Shown here: in pieces, positions 33,899-44,980 of the stretch
How positions within the stretch are numbered: position 1 is the stretch's first letter
How the letters are laid out: each line of letters starts with the position of its first letter
From: Promethearchaeia archaeon
GTDB lineage: Archaea; Asgardarchaeota; Lokiarchaeia; Sigyniarchaeales; SOKP01
Reading direction: 5' to 3'
Length of the DNA: 44,980 nucleotides
Assembly: GCA_029856125.1 (NCBI GenBank)
Contig: JAHQWJ010000038.1
Span: 1-44,980, forward strand
The notes under the pieces: model-generated
Seen by the model: only the letters and a program-made list of their open reading frames with translations
What the model was told of the DNA's origin: nothing
Databases searched by the model: none
Position numbers and translations under genes: made by a program

Positions 33899-34654
33899 AT
33901 GTCTTTCAGATCGGGGTTAAAAGTGTATCGGAAAAACAAGAGCGTTCCCTTAGTTTCGAGCGGCGATTCAAAGCTGGACGCGCTATTGGGAGAGGGTGGT
34001 TTTCATAAAGACTTGGTTTATCTTCTTTATGGAGATAAAAAAAAAACTTCGAACATTTTATTGACCACTTCTGTTATTGCTCAAAAATCTTTCGCTAATG
34101 GCGGTCTTGGAGAGAAAATTAAGGTTGTGTATATTGACGCAAATAATCGCTTTAATCCATATAATGTAAGTAAATTTGCTGTTTCCCAAAATTTATCACC
34201 TCAAAAAGTGCTAGAAAACATCGTTATTGCCCGCGCGTTTACTTGGGATCAAATGGTAGAGCTTCTAGAGAATAGACTCTCCAAACTTGAACAGGTAAAA
34301 GTTGTTTTAATTTCTGGTATTACTACCTTGTTCCAGAGTTACGAAAAACAGACGTTTGAAGATTTACTAAGAGCCATAAATGGGATTAAAGCAATTCTCT
34401 CTAAAACAAGACCATTAATCGTTTTAACTGCACCTTTACACGAATTTTCTCTTTATAGGCCTAATGGCGGAAAAATTCTTTCCCACTTCGGAAGCGTATT
34501 AGTAATGATAAACGAAGACGAGCGATATACCGAATACGTTCTTGTTCAACACCCTTACTTGCCAGAAAATCGCCTTCTAAAATGGAAACCGCGCATTCCT
34601 AAAAGAAATTTGGCAAATTCCACAAAAAATATGTCAATAGATTGTTGGCTCTAA
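33899..34654 (+). CDS. RecA/RadA-fold protein with degenerate Walker motifs (PolB2-associated)
   Basis: VSSGDSKLDALLGEGG, VYIDANNRFNP, VLENIVIARAFT are RadA-like. Walker A reads YGDKKKTS and Walker B reads VLISG. Confidence 0.85.
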   Translation: MSFRSGLKVYRKNKSVPLVSSGDSKLDALLGEGGFHKDLVYLLYGDKKKTSNILLTTSVIAQKSFANGGLGEKIKVVYIDANNRFNPYNVSKFAVSQNLSPQKVLENIVIARAFTWDQMVELLENRLSKLEQVKVVLISGITTLFQSYEKQTFEDLLRAINGIKAILSKTRPLIVLTAPLHEFSLYRPNGGKILSHFGSVLVMINEDERYTEYVLVQHPYLPENRLLKWKPRIPKRNLANSTKNMSIDCWL

Positions 34655-34656
34655 CT

Positions 34657-35067
34657 CTATTCTTTCTTCTTATAGAAGTTAGTATCTTTCTCTTCAAGAG
34701 TTAAAGGATCTCCACCATACTTAACCTTTTTACCTTTATAATAAAGATCTGATTTTTCTTCACAAATTTTATCCCATTTGGAGACCCCTAATTTCTGAAT
34801 CATCAGTAAATTGTAAATCTTAGAATTATGGGGCGCAAAAATCTCGAAATTTACAATTGTTTGTAACTTTTCACATGGAAAATCATTACACTCGAAACAG
34901 AATTCGTGTCCTTTTTCAGTAATACATTGAAAAGTTTTGCACACCGGAAAGTCTAATATTTGACCCTCAAGCGTTCGGCAACCCTTACAATTATAAGCCT
35001 GAACACCTGGACACCTTTTGCAGTAAATTCCACAAGGAGCGTGCCAGTTTTTTAATTCTTCAGTCAT
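34657..35067 (-). CDS. Cys-rich DUF3795-like protein
   Basis: APCGIYCKRC, CKGC, CKTFQC, FCFECNDFPC. Confidence 0.8.
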   Translation of the reverse strand: MTEELKNWHAPCGIYCKRCPGVQAYNCKGCRTLEGQILDFPVCKTFQCITEKGHEFCFECNDFPCEKLQTIVNFEIFAPHNSKIYNLLMIQKLGVSKWDKICEEKSDLYYKGKKVKYGGDPLTLEEKDTNFYKKKE

Positions 35068-35234
35068 AAAAAAAAATGTGAAAAATCATTTAAAAACATA
35101 TTGAGAGAGAAGAAGAAGAGAAACGATTATTTGAGCTATACCAAAAAAATCAGAAAATTTCAGAGGTACTTTTCTTTAAATTTCCCTAAAGACTTACTAA
35201 CGAGATACTTGAAATAATACCGAATGTGTATAAT

Positions 35235-35507
35235 ATGGGACGGACTGTACCTGCTTTTAGACCCGCTTTAGAACACGAAATAGAGAGTTGGAAAGACTTC
35301 AAAAGAGCACTTAGGCCAGAAGATCGAACAATTTTTAATAAATTGATGAATTACGCGAGAATTCATGCTGATGCTGGTAGCTTAGGAGCTCGCCCAATGC
35401 TCTCCGAAATTCTATTTATTTCTTTTGGAATTGAACAAGAAAGGAAAATTGGGCAATTGGAGAAGAAAATCAAAGAATTAGAGGAAATTATAAAGGGAAA
35501 AGAGTAA
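35235..35507 (+). CDS. Small helical protein of the type that precedes polB2 (arCOG07300-like)
   Basis: MGRTVPAFR...WKDFKRALRPEDR.IF..L; ends 2 nt before polB2. ATG at 35235 preferred over GTG at 35226. Confidence 0.8.
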   Translation: MGRTVPAFRPALEHEIESWKDFKRALRPEDRTIFNKLMNYARIHADAGSLGARPMLSEILFISFGIEQERKIGQLEKKIKELEEIIKGKE

Positions 35508-35509
35508 AG

Positions 35510-37918
35510 TTGGATTCGCAAACGACTTTTAATGGGTGGCTTCTCGATGTATCCACGTATAGCGAAGGAGTTATCCTCTGGGTAAAAACCGCAAAAGAAC
35601 AGAAAGTAATAAGAATATACCACCAGTTCAATCCCGAATTTTTCGCTGTTCCTAAAGATGGTGTTGGTAATGACTTAAAGAGAATGCAATATATTCTTAC
35701 TCAAAATCAGAATGTAAAGAAAGTCCGTATCTGTGAAAAATATGTGAAACTAGAGGACCAAGAAAAATCGAAAGTTCTTGGTGTCACTGTTGAAAAACCG
35801 TCAGTGTTCAAGAAAACTATTAAAGAAATCAATAAAATAGGATTATTTACGCTATTTAATACGGATCTCCCAATTACTCAGATGTACTTCTATGTCAACG
35901 ACCTTTTCCCTATGTCTTTTTGCTGCTTTAAGATTAAGGTTGAAAATAGCGGCGGGAAGAACAGTAGCTTTTTGCGCCTTGTTTCTATAGATTTACAAGA
36001 CGATAATGAAGAACTTTTCTACGATTTACCTCCTCTAAGAGCCGTCTGGATAGATGTAAAAATTAATTACCAAGGAATTAAGCCATATTATAACGACCCT
36101 ATTTCCTACGCTGAGATCAGTATAGTTCAGAATGACGAAGACAATGTTCCTCGAGCAGATGGGTACAAAAAACAGAAAATAGTAATTGACAAGAGAAATG
36201 AAGCTGAAATTTTAAGGACCATCAGCAAAGTAATTGAACGCCTTAATCCTGATATTATCCTTACGCAAAATGGGGACGAATTCCTCTTCCCTTACTTGGT
36301 TGCCCGAGCTTCGGAGAATCGAATAACAAAGGAATTCTACTTATCCCGAGATAAGAAACCATTGGCAAAGTGCATCTTCGATCTTTCGGGAGGTTCAGAC
36401 CACTATATGTCCTATGGTGTCATTAGACGGCGTTCAAGAACCCAAGTGTATTTAAGTGGTAGATTTCACTTAGACACGACCACTTATGCCAGTCTTCACT
36501 TTTCTGAAGGTAATATTCCCGGAGTTATTGAAGTTGCCCGTATATCGAGAATTACACTTCAAAGATTAAGTCGTATAACCATCGGGGGAGCGCTTCAATC
36601 AATACAATATTATTACGCTTACAAGCTTGGCCATTTAATTCCTCCATTCAAGAAAAATCCTGAAGGTTTCAGCACTGGAATGGATTTAATAAAAAGCGAC
36701 CGTGGTGGTCACATCTTTGAACCAATAATTGGAGTGTTTGACCAAGTAGTAGAGCTAGATTTTTCCTCAATGTATCCTTCTTTAATGGCCACCTTTAACA
36801 TCTCATCAGAGACTATAAATTGTAAGTGCTGTAAAGACGATGGCACTGGTATAAAGGTTCCGGGATTGGATTTTCATATCTGCACAAAAAGGGAAGGTAT
36901 TATATCAAAATCTATTAGCTTACCACTCAAAAAAAGATTGAAATACAAAGCATATGTGCGCAAAACTGGAAGCGTCCGCTATAACTTCGTTGACATCGCT
37001 CTTAAATGGGTGCTTGTAGTAAGTTTTGGATATTTAGGCTTCAAAAATGCTCGATTTGGAAAGATAGAAGCACATCAGACAGTTTGTGCTTTTTCTCGCG
37101 AGTTTCTCATGCGTTCTGCTGAGATCGCTGAAGAACACGGATGTAGAATTATACATGGAATTGTCGATTCAATATGGTTAAAAGACACAAAAAATCGGAA
37201 CCCCGAAGAATTCGAAGAAATAACGAAGGATATTGCCGAAGAGATAACTAGAAGCGTAGGTATTCCAATGAGTTGGGATGGGCGCTACAATGTAATCGTT
37301 TTTCTTCCCTCATGTGCAGAACCAGACATCCCTGCGCTAAGCCATTATTGGGGGATTAAAAGCGACGGAGAAGCAAAGGTACGAGGGATAGAAGTTCGGC
37401 GTAGAGATATACCGAAGATCGTTAAAGACGCTCAATATGCCTTTATAGATGTTTTTCAAGGTGCAAAGACCACTGAAGAATTTAAGCGAAGAATCTCAAA
37501 AGCCAAGAGCGTGCTCTACCACTACATTGACAAGATAGAGACAGGTAAAGTTTCGCGAGACGAGTTGACAATACGCCAAAGAATCTCAAGAAAACCGTCG
37601 CAATATAAAGTTAACTCGTATCAAGCTGTTGCGGCAAGACAACTAGAACGATCGGGTGTTGTGGTAACTCCTGGTAAAAATGTTCGGTATATTATACTCA
37701 ATGCCGAAGCTGATCCGGAATTTCCTGAGAAGAAAGTGATTCTCTCAGATCTCTACGACGATAAAAAACATCAATACGATCAAAAGAAATATGTCGAACT
37801 GCTTAAAAGAGCTTTTGAGAGTATTTTTCCTTTCGAATTCCCTGAATTAGATGAATTAGTAAAATCAGATCTCATGAGGAAATCTAATCAGAAGAATTTA
37901 TTTAGTTTTATTGAGTAA
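35510..37918 (+). CDS. polB2: Family B DNA polymerase, PolB2/Dpo2 group
   Basis: Motif A ELDFSSMYPS, NISSETINCKCC insert, motif B KWVLVVSFGYLG, motif C HGIVDSIW, KVRGIEVRRRD. Exonuclease motifs degenerate. PIP-like C-terminus QKNLFSF. Confidence 0.93.
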   Translation: MDSQTTFNGWLLDVSTYSEGVILWVKTAKEQKVIRIYHQFNPEFFAVPKDGVGNDLKRMQYILTQNQNVKKVRICEKYVKLEDQEKSKVLGVTVEKPSVFKKTIKEINKIGLFTLFNTDLPITQMYFYVNDLFPMSFCCFKIKVENSGGKNSSFLRLVSIDLQDDNEELFYDLPPLRAVWIDVKINYQGIKPYYNDPISYAEISIVQNDEDNVPRADGYKKQKIVIDKRNEAEILRTISKVIERLNPDIILTQNGDEFLFPYLVARASENRITKEFYLSRDKKPLAKCIFDLSGGSDHYMSYGVIRRRSRTQVYLSGRFHLDTTTYASLHFSEGNIPGVIEVARISRITLQRLSRITIGGALQSIQYYYAYKLGHLIPPFKKNPEGFSTGMDLIKSDRGGHIFEPIIGVFDQVVELDFSSMYPSLMATFNISSETINCKCCKDDGTGIKVPGLDFHICTKREGIISKSISLPLKKRLKYKAYVRKTGSVRYNFVDIALKWVLVVSFGYLGFKNARFGKIEAHQTVCAFSREFLMRSAEIAEEHGCRIIHGIVDSIWLKDTKNRNPEEFEEITKDIAEEITRSVGIPMSWDGRYNVIVFLPSCAEPDIPALSHYWGIKSDGEAKVRGIEVRRRDIPKIVKDAQYAFIDVFQGAKTTEEFKRRISKAKSVLYHYIDKIETGKVSRDELTIRQRISRKPSQYKVNSYQAVAARQLERSGVVVTPGKNVRYIILNAEADPEFPEKKVILSDLYDDKKHQYDQKKYVELLKRAFESIFPFEFPELDELVKSDLMRKSNQKNLFSFIE

Positions 37919-38836: not shown

Positions 38837-39460
38837 TTATTTAAAAGGTTGTCTTATAACAGTTTTCATAGTTGCAGGATTAGCTTTTCTTGGATCACTT
38901 AAATAGATTTCATGGTGTTTGGTTTTCAATCCGTCAAGCTTGCCTCCTTCTTTCTGAACGAAATCATGCACTTTTTGAACGGTTGGTCCTTCTTCCGAAT
39001 AAGGACCTACATGCATAATTTGAGCCGCTTTACCTTCTTTATATTTTTCAAGTCTAAGTTTAGGAAGCAATTCTGAAAGTTCAGGCTTCTTCTTTTTAGT
39101 TATTGATATTGCTTCATTTATCATATCTTGAGTAATCCAATCTGGTTGCATTATCATCATAGTCCATTTCCACTTATCACGATTTCCGTCTATGAAATCT
39201 TCCATGTTGTCAGCCCACCATAGTCCTTCTAAAGGAGGAACGACGTAATCTTTCCCTATTGCCTTACTTAAGAATTTTGTTTTGAAAGCGATAGGATAGA
39301 GTACTGCTAGAGCGTCTTGATACTCTTTCGAATCGCCTGGTGATCCCATTCCATCAATCATCAAGAACTGCATTTCTGGTACATCTATTAGGACTACTTC
39401 CTTTGGACTTGGTTGGTAAATTTCCTTCATAGATTTCTTGAAATCTATTTTAATCGGCAT
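38837..39460 (-). CDS. GyrI-like small-molecule-binding domain protein
   Basis: QFLMIDGMGSP, YVVPPLEGLWW, WKWTMMIMQP, QIMHVGPYSEE, HHEIYLSDPR, KTVIRQP. Confidence 0.9.
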   Translation of the reverse strand: MPIKIDFKKSMKEIYQPSPKEVVLIDVPEMQFLMIDGMGSPGDSKEYQDALAVLYPIAFKTKFLSKAIGKDYVVPPLEGLWWADNMEDFIDGNRDKWKWTMMIMQPDWITQDMINEAISITKKKKPELSELLPKLRLEKYKEGKAAQIMHVGPYSEEGPTVQKVHDFVQKEGGKLDGLKTKHHEIYLSDPRKANPATMKTVIRQPFK

Positions 39461-39515: not shown

Positions 39516-40070
39516 TTAGAGAATATAAGGAATCAGAAAGAAGTCTAAAAAGATTGCTACTAAACATATAAATTCCATTATAACCCATAAATTTCTTTTT
39601 ATGCTCCTTAATCCTTTAAAAGATTTCCCTGAATAACTAATTGTATTGTAAATTATAATCATTATCCATGCAACTACCAAAAAAACGATAGGGAGTAATA
39701 GTGCGTATAATAGATGTCCGATAAAGTCTAATAAGTACACGTACCCTAAGATTGAAAATGCGATTATAACTAAAGTAAAACCCATACCAAATGTATATTC
39801 TGCGAAGCTCACGAATCTATTTACTTTGATTTCATCAAAATCTTCTAATTTTAACTCAAACGCCGCCCTTGAATTTGCAGAAACAGAGTTTACAAACAAA
39901 ATAAACGAGACCATTAATAAGAAAGTAACAGTAACAATTCCTCTTGTTGGAGGTACTTGCCAAATTAACGCTAGAATAGTTAGAGTCGCAGCAATCATGG
40001 TAGTACTAAGAACTATCCAATCCCTTACATTTAAAATAGTGTTTTGGCTATTTTCTTCCATCTTACTCAA
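39516..40070 (-). CDS. Hypothetical membrane protein (about 5 TM)
   Basis: Five hydrophobic segments in 184 aa. Confidence 0.75.
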   Translation of the reverse strand: MSKMEENSQNTILNVRDWIVLSTTMIAATLTILALIWQVPPTRGIVTVTFLLMVSFILFVNSVSANSRAAFELKLEDFDEIKVNRFVSFAEYTFGMGFTLVIIAFSILGYVYLLDFIGHLLYALLLPIVFLVVAWIMIIIYNTISYSGKSFKGLRSIKRNLWVIMEFICLVAIFLDFFLIPYIL

Positions 40071-40258
40071 TATGAATGTTGTTTATGTTTAATTTATGTT
40101 TTGAAATAATTATTATAAAATTTCTCTTTTTCATCAAAAATTGTTAATTAATTGTAGTTTTCTTGACTTTTTTGAATTTGTTCAATTAATTGTTCAGAAA
40201 ATTATTCAATATATTTATAAATGAATATTTCATATTAATGATAAGAAGGTGACTAATA

Positions 40259-41218
40259 ATGGAAATAATAAATGAAAAAGATAGAAAAAAATTGATTTTA
40301 GAATCACAAAAATATGGAGGTATAAGCCTACGGCGTCAAAAGTTAAGGGTGCATAAGAATGGGGCAAAATTTCCTATTAGCAAAGCATATATTGATGACG
40401 AACTCTTAGATCCGGAAATTTCCTACACTCTAATTTTGATACCTGAAGTCAAAATCGCTGACCAAACTATAGTCTCACTAACTTTTTTTAAAAGAAGGAG
40501 CGGCCCTCTTATCTACTATTATTATCCTGAGAATTCTTTAAATGCGACAGAAAAGGCTAGTATAATGGATATTATGGTTCAAGTATCTAATGAAAAATAC
40601 TTTATTCACCAATCGAGTAATCTATCTTCATTAAATTATTATTTTGAAATTCACTCTGATTGGGCTCGTGGGAAGAAGGAGATGTTAATGATTAGTGTTA
40701 TCCTCAATACGAAAATCACTAAATCAATTGAAGACATAATTCTTTCGATTTGTATCGATTTTGAAACCGATTTAACATCTATCAAAGATATCTACAAAGC
40801 ATTATATGATAAAGATTTAGACTCATTTTCCGATGAAGAACAATCGGATATAGAAAAAATCAGTAGAATTCTGCGTACGAAAATAAAAGAATTACTTAAA
40901 AAAATAAGAAAATTAGACAGTCAAAAGTTTACTAAGGTTATATTCAGAGGTTCAATGGAAATTGAAAAGAAATTAGACCTAACTGAAATTGCTCAAGGAA
41001 TTCAAGATGCTGAGTTCAATCCAGAGAAGTTTCCGGGGTTAATTATGAAAATTGAGAAACCAAACGCTACAATTCTTATGTTTTCTGATGGTAAATTGAT
41101 GATAACCGATTTGGAAAATCCATCCAAAGTTGATCAAGTGGTTGATATTATTATGGAAAAACTTAAGAACATAGGTATTATAATACCTAAACCAGAAATT
41201 ACAATAGAAAGTACATAA
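40259..41218 (+). CDS. Fusion protein: AbrB-like N-terminus (tentative), uDENN/longin-like middle (tentative), single TBP repeat at the C-terminus
   Basis: C-terminal LDLTEIA...AEFNPEKFPGLIMKIEKPNATILMFSDGKLMIT is one TBP repeat. Middle has LTFFKRRSGPLIYYYYP...NYYFEIHSDWARG. GGTGA ribosome-binding site upstream. Confidence 0.8.
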   Translation: MEIINEKDRKKLILESQKYGGISLRRQKLRVHKNGAKFPISKAYIDDELLDPEISYTLILIPEVKIADQTIVSLTFFKRRSGPLIYYYYPENSLNATEKASIMDIMVQVSNEKYFIHQSSNLSSLNYYFEIHSDWARGKKEMLMISVILNTKITKSIEDIILSICIDFETDLTSIKDIYKALYDKDLDSFSDEEQSDIEKISRILRTKIKELLKKIRKLDSQKFTKVIFRGSMEIEKKLDLTEIAQGIQDAEFNPEKFPGLIMKIEKPNATILMFSDGKLMITDLENPSKVDQVVDIIMEKLKNIGIIIPKPEITIEST

Positions 41219-41388
41219 TAATTAGTTATGATTTAATTAACACTAAAAAAATCAGCATCTTTTTTCTCTCACTATATTGTTAAAAATTAAATTATGATCT
41301 CTCGCTTTCTACTATCCTTTTTAGATGTTATTTTTAGAAAACTAACAGCCCGTATTAGTTTATTATTGTTTCGCGTTAAAATTAAATT

Positions 41389-41571
41389 ATGTCATCAAAA
41401 ATTGTTTCTTATTTTGATTGGGATCGTTCAATAAATCCTCCGGTTCCCACATCTGGTTTTAACACTTCAGCAAAATTAAAGAGTACGAAAAAAACCAATT
41501 TAAATTCAATTGGAATGAGTGATGATGACTTTAAGCAACAACTAAAGAAATGGAAGAACAGAAACTTTTAA
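41389..41571 (+). CDS. Microprotein (60 aa), paralogue of the next ORF
   Basis: Shares FDW...S, LNSIG and KQxLKxWKxxN with 41731-41886. Confidence 0.7.
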   Translation: MSSKIVSYFDWDRSINPPVPTSGFNTSAKLKSTKKTNLNSIGMSDDDFKQQLKKWKNRNF

Positions 41572-41893: not shown

Positions 41894-44800
41894 TTATGTA
41901 ACAATCTCAGTGAAGTATAAAACAACAAGTAATACCACCCAAATAATCGTTAGAGTTATTAACAGTATCGTAGTATAAAACCTCCACTTTATTGAAATCT
42001 TCTGTTTTTTTTCAATTCTGTAAATATATATTGCAAGTATTGCTCCTAATATAATTATTGAAGATATTATCAGAATTATTCCAAAAATAATTGAAGTTAT
42101 ATATGGTAATATCAAAGCAAATACGAATACGGTAAAACTTATCCAAAGTGTGATAAAACGCTGCATTCTTTGTTTAAAAACTTGATCTAGGTCATCTGTT
42201 TTCTTGGTTGGGAGCAAAGAGATTAAAATTCCTGAAGTCGCTAGACCTGAGAGAGCCGCGTGATCCCATCTTAACAAACCTAAAACAATGTTGGAGAAGA
42301 GCTCTCCTACTAATATACCTGCAATCAAGCAAAAAATAATTCCTATTATTTTAAAGTGCTTTTTTAAGAAATTGAGAGTAGAATAATAGAAACTTAGAAG
42401 GAAATTTTTGAGTTTAATAAGAGCAAATCGTAAATTATCTATAATATTATCTAAGAATCTTTTCAATTCTTCTAGCATAAAAATAAACAAGTATAACATC
42501 GCCCCTACTAATATCCAAGAGAAACTCCATCCATTTGAAGTTAAATTAAGAGTAATTAAGCTTAGTAGCAAGAACATTAATACAGAATATAAGAAGGAAA
42601 GGAATTTGCTGCGTTTAAAAGGTTTGAATAGAGCTAAATTTATTATCATAAAAATGAATAGAGATAGGCACAAGTTTAAAATTAGATTCGGATTAATAAT
42701 AAATTCTAATGTAATAAAAATATCTAATGATAGAAGAGTTTCAATAAAGATAAAACTGGAAATCCTGAGTAAATTTCTTGTCTTATCACTTACAACTTTA
42801 ATATATTTGTCAACGAAGGTTAAAATTAGTAAGATAATAAACGATAGTATCAATAAGTTAAACGAAATATAATAATCTGGATTAATATAATATAAAGGCC
42901 ATGTGATTAAATCTAAGTAGACGATTAGAATTAGACCTTTATTAATCCTTGATGTGTTGGAACTGATAAAATCCCATTCTGATATTAACCGAGATAAGTA
43001 TGCGATTTGTATTATGAAAAGTATTATAGTGATAGGTATTAGATGTGGGAAAAACAATGAAATCCAATCAATGTAGAATAAGATCGAGAAACCTATCATA
43101 ACGATCCACGAAGTGATGATAAAAAACTTCGAGGTTTTCTTTAAAAACTTTAACAAAAACTTATCTAACAAACCAAACAAATGGGTTAGAATACTTAAAA
43201 TCAAAATAGCTATATGGATTTCTACAAATGGGGTCAACGAATTAAAGATGCTGACTATTAGAAAAACATATAAACCTATCCCTAAGTAATTCTGCCTATT
43301 AGTTTTCCATTTTCCAAACATTTCAAGCTTTTCAGGATTCAATTTACTCCTAATATTGAAATACGAGATGTTAGTGTAGAATTGCAGTGATAAAAATATC
43401 AAAATTATATAGAAAAATGAAGTTATTGAAAAACCATATAAATAAATTAAAATCAGAGAAAGAACCCAAGAGCTATTAAAAAAACTTAAACAGTGGACAA
43501 TATCCATATACCCTGCTTTTAAACGCTTTATACCGTAAATTTCTAATATGCTGATTAAGAATAGAATAATCTGAGAAAATAGCAGACTTTCGAAAAATCC
43601 AAAAAATAATCCAAAGAGTCCGAGAAACACGAATGAAGTCTCTAAGTAAACGATAAATACTAAACCTGAATAGATTTTCTTTGTCTTTATAACCCATTCC
43701 TCGCTTTTTATAACACCTTTCGATAAGTATATTGTATAAGCGGTTAGTATAGTTTCAGACAGAATAACTAAAGTAATTCTTAAAAAGTCGAGTATTGAGA
43801 ATGTTCCAAAAAGAGAGAACCAGAAAATGCCAAAAAACATTTGGAACGCTATGAAAGTAGAGAATAGTATAATGTTCTTATATTTAATTTCGATAGTGCG
43901 ATTTAAAAAACCATTTAATAGGAACATTAGCAATGAAAAGACAGAAAGAAAGAAACTCAATGAAGGAATTCCAATTAGTAATGGGTTGTAGGCTAGTAAA
44001 AAGTCAGTCAATAATAGAGAAAGGTAAAAACTAATCACCAGAAAGATAATATTCAGTAGAATTGCTTGCAATTGATTTCTAATTTCCTTTATTCTACTAG
44101 CATCGTATTTAGTTATTCCCTCGATATAGTAAGATAGGTAATATAATGTATAGAACTGTAATATCAAAAATATTACTAAATTTAAAACAAATAATGTTGC
44201 ATCATTTCCTGTAAATTGGGCAAAGTAAATTAATCCACCAATCGTAATTACAAGAAATGCTATGATATTTAACAAATAGGTGATCTTTTCTATAGTTCTT
44301 TTTAAAACATGGATGTCTAATAAAGTAGAGAGGAAAAATATGAAAACGGATAACAATATAGCTCCATAAAAGTAAAGGCTAATATCTATTAACTCCTGAA
44401 TCAATCCAAAACTCAACAAGCCAAGTTCAAAATGCGATAATAGCGACAGAATTGAATCAAATTTCTTCATACCGTAATCCTTTTCAGGCATTTGCTCTTC
44501 GATTTTCTTCACAAATACTACTCTTGATACCGAAAAATAAGCAGAGTAAATTAAAAGTGAAAGTAAAACTATGAAATAGAGAAATTGTATGATGTGGAGA
44601 GATTGAAATAATTCTATCAATACTATAAATTGTAAAGTTAATAATGTTAATGCTAGAGGAGATATATACCGTACAATAAAACGGTATTCATATAATGCTG
44701 GCATAATAATAATTAAATTTACAAATACGAATATCGCAGACGCTAAAAAGATAAATTCTGGCAGGAAAATATAAACTAAAAATGATAAGGTAAGCGATGT

Positions 44801-44980
44801 TCCTATCGATAAAATTGAAAGCGGAAATATTTTTTTAAGAGGTAAAATCATTCGAAATTTGTTAAATACAAGAGTTGACCCGCCAAAAACCGTAATTGCT
44901 AAAGATATAGCGATGAACTCGATATTAGGAATCAATATAAATGTGTTGTAGGTAAATAAGGAGAAATTTACAACTAAAAT
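41894..44980 (-). CDS. Very large polytopic membrane protein, 5' truncated by the window edge
   Basis: Frame stays open to 44980 (ILVVNFSLFTYNTFILIP…). More than 1000 aa of near-continuous TM helices with basic loops; no family recognised. Confidence 0.8.
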   Translation of the reverse strand: MLVVNFSLFTYNTFILIPNIEFIAISLAITVFGGSTLVFNKFRMILPLKKIFPLSILSIGTSLTLSFLVYIFLPEFIFLASAIFVFVNLIIIMPALYEYRFIVRYISPLALTLLTLQFIVLIELFQSLHIIQFLYFIVLLSLLIYSAYFSVSRVVFVKKIEEQMPEKDYGMKKFDSILSLLSHFELGLLSFGLIQELIDISLYFYGAILLSVFIFFLSTLLDIHVLKRTIEKITYLLNIIAFLVITIGGLIYFAQFTGNDATLFVLNLVIFLILQFYTLYYLSYYIEGITKYDASRIKEIRNQLQAILLNIIFLVISFYLSLLLTDFLLAYNPLLIGIPSLSFFLSVFSLLMFLLNGFLNRTIEIKYKNIILFSTFIAFQMFFGIFWFSLFGTFSILDFLRITLVILSETILTAYTIYLSKGVIKSEEWVIKTKKIYSGLVFIVYLETSFVFLGLFGLFFGFFESLLFSQIILFLISILEIYGIKRLKAGYMDIVHCLSFFNSSWVLSLILIYLYGFSITSFFYIILIFLSLQFYTNISYFNIRSKLNPEKLEMFGKWKTNRQNYLGIGLYVFLIVSIFNSLTPFVEIHIAILILSILTHLFGLLDKFLLKFLKKTSKFFIITSWIVMIGFSILFYIDWISLFFPHLIPITIILFIIQIAYLSRLISEWDFISSNTSRINKGLILIVYLDLITWPLYYINPDYYISFNLLILSFIILLILTFVDKYIKVVSDKTRNLLRISSFIFIETLLSLDIFITLEFIINPNLILNLCLSLFIFMIINLALFKPFKRSKFLSFLYSVLMFLLLSLITLNLTSNGWSFSWILVGAMLYLFIFMLEELKRFLDNIIDNLRFALIKLKNFLLSFYYSTLNFLKKHFKIIGIIFCLIAGILVGELFSNIVLGLLRWDHAALSGLATSGILISLLPTKKTDDLDQVFKQRMQRFITLWISFTVFVFALILPYITSIIFGIILIISSIIILGAILAIYIYRIEKKQKISIKWRFYTTILLITLTIIWVVLLVVLYFTEIVT

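Follow-up and report, generated by a model that had tools for sequence, protein, structure and literature searches.

The question raised by this locus is what a single half of a TATA-binding protein (TBP) may do within a longer protein. In the window, by which we mean the whole stretch of 44,980 nucleotides analysed here, an intact open reading frame without breaks (40259..41218, + strand) encodes a 319-aa protein made of an N-terminal domain (N-domain), a longin domain and a TBP lobe. This work indicates that it is a real, lineage-restricted variant of a one-component regulator and not a TBP substitute. The reading that we somewhat favour is that of a homodimeric, autoregulatory transcription factor of Lokiarchaeia, equipped with a GTPase-binding input and an accessory lobe, and we infer every binding event in it from sequence, conservation, predicted folds and motif statistics.

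The fusion is, with near certainty, real and conserved. Its homologues are named as Lokiarchaeota or Promethearchaeota, the tree set holds 62 lobe-bearing sequences, and full-length relatives reach down to 55% identity, the frame of about 320 aa being found in nine species, all of the window's own genus. Moreover, a contig of 947 nt from an independent study covers positions 40585-41400, including the longin/TBP junction. Regarding the protein itself, Pfam recognised one TBP repeat and nothing significant elsewhere, and the AlphaFold model consists of three parts, namely an N-terminus which is not resolved as a monomer, a five-stranded domain (68-221) and the lobe (226-318). The chimeric assembly considered by the earlier note was excluded by the lobe-bearing sequences, by the relatives at 55% identity and by the independent contig over the junction. 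A unique, decaying fusion was likewise ruled out by the 62 sequences, their nine species and the constraint seen in dN/dS. RNA reads, from one run, cover the divergent gene alone and say nothing on the expression of the fusion gene. Our search of the literature, which reached few subscription journals, yielded no account of the architecture, of the N-domain family or of its operator, and a weak search for longer fusions (>560 aa) of the same TBP lobe returned none of relevance.

The N-domain gene was found in 35 of 400 Asgard genomes, all of them Lokiarchaeia, nearly all of which have one copy. The lobe was present in nine and absent in 21 of the 30 genomes that scored best. In a quick tree built on the N-domain and longin part, lobe-bearing sequences formed one clade (SH-aLRT 88, unstarred) nested among lobe-less forms, and four changes were required; on these sequences, the lobe was probably gained once and lost at least three times. 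A further, natural in-frame deletion of the lobe was observed as a 241-aa form, represented by ten distinct sequences that fall with 321-aa forms into one 90% cluster; in one example (L115:363-1088), the deletion is joined at a short similar sequence. The lobe-less ortholog L026 retains the same neighbourhood. In one lobe-less clade (L107-L114) the gene lies, as judged by eye, between an IF2-like gene and a gene resembling that of the CCA-adding enzyme.

Several neighbours are conserved in the fused clade. A divergent gene for a membrane protein of 181-184 aa (39516..40070, - strand) shares the intergenic region with the fusion gene and is a possible second target of the regulator; a GyrI-like small-molecule-binding gene lies downstream of it (38837..39460, - strand). 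A gene for a large polytopic membrane protein is the conserved convergent neighbour; in the window it occupies positions 41894-44935 and encodes more than 1,000 aa (about 1,500 in relatives) without a Pfam match. Upstream, positions 33899-37918 hold a cluster of a RadA-like gene, a gene for a small protein and PolB (PolB2-type), and PolB recurs beside the fused clade.

The strongest signal points to the N-domain together with its operator, which lies outside the interval covered by the earlier note. The predicted operator is a phased array (40179..40208, + strand) composed of TGTTCA at 40179-84, TGTTCA at 40191-96 and a degenerate TATTCA at 40203-08, with a period of 12 bp. It precedes a probable TATA box, TTTATAAA (40214..40221, + strand), assigned on the archaeal consensus and conserved in position in the orthologous promoters, and a putative Shine-Dalgarno-like element, GAAGGTGA (40245..40252, + strand); a sigma-70 promoter scan is uninformative for an archaeal host. 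An exact TGTTCA pair, spaced by 11-12 bp, was found at 26 of 29 orthologous loci, which are not independent of one another, and the three others showed one mismatch. This pair occurs independently of the presence of the lobe and spans more than 10 different neighbourhoods. In the host genome, a pair within 130 bp of an ORF start was found in one of 2,954 regions, mismatch allowed, and this region is that of the fusion gene.

It is the N-domain that these boxes track, rather than the longin or the lobe. None of 30 parent longin genes without an N-domain bears even a single box within 200 bp. By contrast, four of six distant N-domain genes without a longin bear five YGWWCR sites each (shuffle p 0.000-0.004), the other two having just one, against a background in which 5 of 3,186 regions have at least three sites; this degenerate consensus was set post hoc, after viewing the sites. 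Consecutive spacings in the genes without a longin were exactly 11 bp in 7 of 16 cases. One ortholog, in genome G123 (L087:1250-1560, contig C235), has lost its start codon and N-terminal helix together with the boxes, and is probably a decaying copy. We consider it quite probable, on such motif statistics, that the N-domain binds the boxes, and the pseudo-palindromic hexamer fits a dimer with two-fold symmetry; the boxes could also be read by a different, unlinked regulator. A wider regulon was not found in the host genome, where TGTTCA pairs number 5 versus about 1.6 expected and the gene's own promoter is the sole promoter case; nor, on visual inspection, could carriers be told from non-carriers by their box counts over 161 genomes. 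Of the lobe-less promoters, 15 of 21 have a further box at about -9, as against none of eight fused ones. This suggests repression by flanking of the promoter, and gives a weak hint that the lobe possibly stands in for the downstream box.

The N-domain itself (aa 1-64; 40259..40450, + strand), characterised through family search, models and dN/dS, comprises a helix followed by a beta-beta-alpha-beta core and is the probable operator reader. It belongs to an independent, mobile family (39 matches up to E 0.001) with many partner domains, being found before longins, acetoacetate-decarboxylase-like domains and others, or behind a helix-turn-helix (HTH). The model based on a 38-row alignment reached a pLDDT of 92 with few self-paired strands, and two copies were modelled as an intertwined homodimer (score 0.70, versus 0.00 for the best of 3 controls). 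Of proteins solved as same-chain pairs, 20 of 30 attained the mark used for this score, as did one of 23 solved as single chains; these counts are rough, given the use of our own alignment. The dimer runs showed at least 98% contact agreement, a partner pLDDT of at least 78 and about 200 contacts, with beta3-beta3' and beta1-beta3' as the modelled strand pairs. This modelling supports dimerisation of the N-domain, without showing it. The N-domain is also the most constrained part of the gene, with a dN/dS of 0.00-0.18 among intact genes, and it includes the conserved basic residues H32, K37 and K42.

The earlier note had tentatively likened this N-terminus to a swapped-hairpin, AbrB-like DNA-binding domain. 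The N-terminus proved to be an independent domain, modelled as an intertwined homodimer, but its assignment to AbrB has weak structural support. No known DNA-binding fold matched the N-domain significantly (best Z 2.4), and it received no significant name from Pfam, PDB sequence, Foldseek or Atlas-feature searches, although such blanks do not prove a new fold. Kinship with AbrB or RIFT-type proteins is weakly supported by a structural hint towards 2d9r_A (Z 2.1, rmsd 2.4, 42 aligned), by weak Atlas cluster matches to MazE (TM 0.46) and DUF2080 (TM 0.40/0.51), and by an AbrB-like Pfam match in one of 38 members (E 0.078). Matches to ribosomal L29e (7 of 38 members), ArlR and FliG were treated as chance. 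On the models, the N-domain is a probable DNA-binding dimeric barrel, and it appears to belong to a so far unnamed family of archaeal DNA-binding domains, whose site can be predicted. Elsewhere in this family, the genes L156-L161 join the N-domain to acetoacetate-decarboxylase-like or BtrH-like (by eye) domains and bear phased YGWWCR boxes; they are often operon-first and divergent from another gene, and constitute an unnamed regulator family.

The single TBP lobe (aa 226-318; 40934..41212, + strand) was defined by Pfam, structure and tree grouping as repeat 1 together with the first strand residues of the repeat that follows. The proposal that the last ~90 aa form one TBP repeat with both DNA-intercalating Phe positions was fully borne out. 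Indeed, PF00352 matched one stretch (residues 231-304, E 5e-19), while the host's own TBP shows two; the model of residues 226-318 superposed on yeast TBP 69-159 (7o4i_O) with Z 15.2, rmsd 1.3 and 91 aligned residues; and the two Phe positions, F258 (41030..41032, + strand; first) and F275 (41081..41083, + strand; second), are kept in 100% and 94% of the family, respectively, in a comparison of 62 lobes. The lobe begins midway in the first strand and ends just into the repeat-2 strand, and the chain thereby closes its own sheet. No second TBP repeat was found after the stop codon, nor any TBP fragment near lobe-less genes. In the tree, the lobe is placed beside repeat 1, and away from repeat 2, of Lokiarchaeial TBPs (100/100), and N254 and K257 occupy positions where repeat 2 has E and V. 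The TFIIB-binding stirrup of TBP is the C-terminal, repeat-2 one (PMC10005294) and is therefore absent from a lobe derived from repeat 1.

The 62 lobes were compared, residue by residue, with 24 canonical Lokiarchaeial TBPs. K264, T271, K279 and T283 are retained in 92-97% of lobes, and the exposed DNA-face residues, these four together with F258 and F275, are 92-100% conserved. The equivalents of K264, T271, K279 and T283 touch DNA in yeast TBP. By contrast, the two central Asn positions, occupied by N in 100% of the 24 TBPs, carry K in 93% of lobes (K226) and S in 81% (S318). Other former DNA-contact positions are eroded, with loss of a basic residue at 269 (N269) and of Thr at 277 (D277), the Gly at 284 is gone in 55% of lobes (D284 here), and the mean net charge is 0.05 in lobes versus +3.8 in canonical TBPs. 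At dS values that reach beyond 1, pairwise dN/dS of the lobe ranged from 0.07 to 0.43, much like that of the longin, which indicates that the lobe is maintained but relaxed. The host genome encodes three two-repeat TBPs and seven TFBs, and a role of the protein as a replacement TBP is unlikely. We slightly favour contact of the lobe with DNA.

Other TBP-derived genes were noticed in these genomes. Two nearly identical tandem TBP genes are present in the host (L003:7075-8487, contig C136 of G000), whose flanks hold two Rab-like GTPase genes and a V4R-like gene; stray lobes may plausibly come from such duplicated tbp copies. A diverged two-repeat TBP of 301 aa, with a long N-terminal extension, adjoins an Hsp20-like gene (L147:1958-2863, G031:C138), and a stand-alone TBP repeat 1 of 115 aa stops soon after the start of repeat 2 (L148:1344-1691, G080:C50).

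The same regulator might carry its lobe as a tolerated passenger, derived from a duplicated tbp and kept as it folds harmlessly. Such a passenger would account for the three or more losses on the tree, for the 241-aa deletion form whose 10 distinct sequences occur beside 321-aa forms, for the lobe-less L026 in an unchanged neighbourhood, and for the erosion of N269, D277, D284 and net charge. We nevertheless hold it to be rather unlikely, considering the longin-like dN/dS maintained over a large dS, the retention of the surface Phe pair and of T271, K279 and T283, and the parallel retention of both Phe in Lokiarchaeial Lrp fusions (see below).

The longin domain (aa ~68-221; 40460..40921, + strand), identified by model and structure search, is of the folliculin/NPRL2/SMCR8 type. 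Its best structural match was the folliculin complex (6nzd_H; Z 13.5, rmsd 2.4, 137 aligned), followed by GATOR1 (8fw5_C; Z 11.6, rmsd 3.2, 131 aligned) and a Lokiarchaeial longin (8yqg_B; Z 11.5, rmsd 3.2, 135 aligned); Lst4, C9orf72-SMCR8 and SEA were also matched, and TRAPP, adaptin and DENND1A ranked lower. The family profile weakly matched NPRL2 (9-41, E 0.48), and Pfam Afi1 matched 6 of 31 members (best E 0.016). A GP motif before beta2 is a hallmark of GAP longins (PMC12290439), as is an Arg between beta4 and beta5 (bioRxiv 10.64898/2026.01.05.697756). Both were found by alignment in 62 of 62 fused forms: G82-P83 lies in the beta1-beta2 loop (40502..40507, + strand), and R137 (40667..40669, + strand), a candidate arginine finger, lies in the beta4-beta5 loop between strands 123-132 and 140-148, as placed by secondary structure and not by residue-level superposition. 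This Arg is eroded in some lobe-less forms. We are highly confident that the fold is that of a GAP-type longin, which may have GAP activity, and we lean towards binding of a small GTPase by the longin in this protein. The host genome holds ~70 Ras-family matches and roughly 45 full-length small GTPases, and no small GTPase gene was found as a conserved neighbour of the fusion loci. The suggestion that the middle of the protein is uDENN/longin-like thus stands for the longin fold, refined to the GAP-type folliculin/NPRL2 class, and for the uDENN-like part alone. A full DENN protein was rejected, the longin ending at ~221 with the TBP lobe directly after it and without cDENN or dDENN.

The longin of the fusion derives from a parent family of ~390 aa, present in nearly all Lokiarchaeia. 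One such parent longin in the host (386 aa; L001:6546-7706, G000:C84) conserves GP and Arg, with a C-terminal part without Pfam match. A more distant paralog (L002:150-1193, G000:C6), with GP and the same Arg-loop motif, is fused to an Arf/Ras-like GTPase and hence joins a GAP-type domain and a GTPase in one chain. The protein as a whole might be mainly a GAP, in which the N-domain merely dimerises longins, as in FLCN-FNIP and NPRL2-NPRL3 pairs, and another factor reads the boxes. This would agree with the dimeric action of eukaryotic GAP longins, with the full conservation of GP and Arg in the fused clade and with the status of the N-domain fold as a prediction. It is improbable, however, given that boxes precede N-domain genes without a longin and are absent before longin genes without an N-domain, and that a TBP lobe makes poor sense on a pure GAP.

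Another role may be considered for the lobe, that of a protein-binding decoy or adaptor, dominant-negative or recruiting, which would bind TBP via the Phe face, or TBP-interacting factors, and make no DNA contact. The concave face of TBP also mediates TBP dimers, and the conserved hydrophobic concave face and lost positive charge of the lobe fit protein as well as DNA binding. Yet the retention of K264, T271, K279 and T283, which contact DNA in TBP, and the imbalance between a single-copy gene and the host's three TBP and seven TFB genes make such a decoy quite improbable. Lastly, the earlier note had proposed that dimerisation rebuilds a symmetric TBP saddle, giving an alternative or dominant-negative initiation factor; the N-domain dimer would indeed hold two lobes with both Phe retained, and the operator array ends beside the TATA box, but this reading is poorly supported and very improbable, as both central Asn are replaced, the lobe's own C-terminal strand (313-318) closes the lobe and fills the site needed for a partner strand, the repeat-1 origin leaves the TFIIB-binding repeat-2 stirrup missing, the charge is 0 instead of +3.8, and the lobe is dispensable, having been lost repeatedly, in a host with three canonical TBPs.

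From a mechanistic point of view, the homodimeric autoregulatory factor may be envisaged as follows. Two N-domains would intertwine into a small beta-barrel, as modelled, and this barrel would read the pseudo-palindromic YGWWCR hexamer, here TGTTCA. Several dimers may then sit side by side on the same face of the DNA, 11-12 bp apart, as far as the BRE/TATA region of their own promoter, and we consider repression through occlusion a little more probable than activation. The folliculin/NPRL2-type longin would bind, and perhaps switch off, a cellular small GTPase, which would constitute the regulatory input. The TBP lobe is probably a later, optional add-on from repeat 1 of a Lokiarchaeial TBP. 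Tethered by the TATA box, it would most likely provide an extra, weak minor-groove contact via its two Phe, and this contact would bend DNA or block the cell's TBP, probably without nucleating initiation. The lobe is likely such an accessory DNA contact rather than part of a rebuilt saddle. A bolder version, which we regard as unlikely, would be signalling from GTPase to promoter without a kinase, in which the GAP longin would respond to the nucleotide state of a GTPase and thereby control a DNA-binding dimer of a new class, its tethered lobes forming, at the neighbouring TATA box, a split TBP specific to this promoter. If true, it would exemplify the reuse of TBP lobes, in Lokiarchaeia, as gene-specific regulator modules.

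The determination of such an architecture offers perspectives beyond this locus. To our knowledge, eukaryotic folliculin and GATOR1 longin GAPs reach transcription only via mTORC1, and Asgard archaea are without mTORC1. In the present fusion, a GAP-type longin is joined to a probable DNA-binding domain whose operator is readable from the genome, and the link between GTPase and promoter is therefore directly testable, with a 30-bp probe and a 64-residue domain. Versions with the lobe, without it and with it freshly deleted occur on the same operator and constitute a natural experiment on a single TBP lobe, whose capability bears on the function of TBP before its duplication.

Comparison with known systems places each part of the protein. 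The longin fold, the GP motif and the beta4-beta5 Arg are shared with FLCN, NPRL2, SMCR8, Avl9/Afi1 and GP-motif Asgard longins, and Asgard NPRL2-like longins were reported to be shuffled into signalling fusions (bioRxiv 10.1101/2020.10.19.343400). Unlike FLCN/NPRL2-type GAP subunits, the fusion has neither downstream DENN nor NPRL2 C-terminal domains, nor a known partner subunit; its longin, a putative GAP, is joined to a DNA-binding candidate and a TBP lobe. With cradle-loop barrels (AbrB/MazE, DUF2080, RIFT-type PhS018), the N-domain shares the beta-beta-alpha-beta unit, a predicted intertwined homodimer and probable multi-site autoregulation. It differs from AbrB in an extra N-terminal helix, three core strands instead of four and sensor-like partner domains, and its beta3-beta3' pairing is closer to the six-stranded RIFT-type barrel (PMC11258233). 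The lobe has the same fold as archaeal TBPs (P. woesei 1PCZ/1AIS, S. acidocaldarius 1MP9 and the host's own three TBPs; rmsd 1.3-1.4 over 90-91 residues) and is 44-48% identical to repeat 1 of the latter, both Phe being retained; in contrast to them, it is single, neutral, fused, optional and fast-evolving, and is without the central Asn pair or the repeat-2 stirrup. Lokiarchaeia also have an Lrp-TBP lobe-Lrp fusion of 412 aa (L146:334-1572, G026:C132), which forms a large family with both Phe at 100% and with lobe-less versions of 318 aa. It likewise carries one repeat-1 lobe in a regulator, with both Phe kept and Asn lost, and differs in the host regulator; on a shared origin of the two lobes, 85 columns gave no decision. 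Finally, single TBP domains were described in RNase HIII, DNA glycosylases and halobacterial TbpA (PMC3597702). Those fusions are ancient and highly diverged, whereas the lobe described here, which is not in that survey, is young, Lokiarchaeial and borne by a probable gene-specific regulator.
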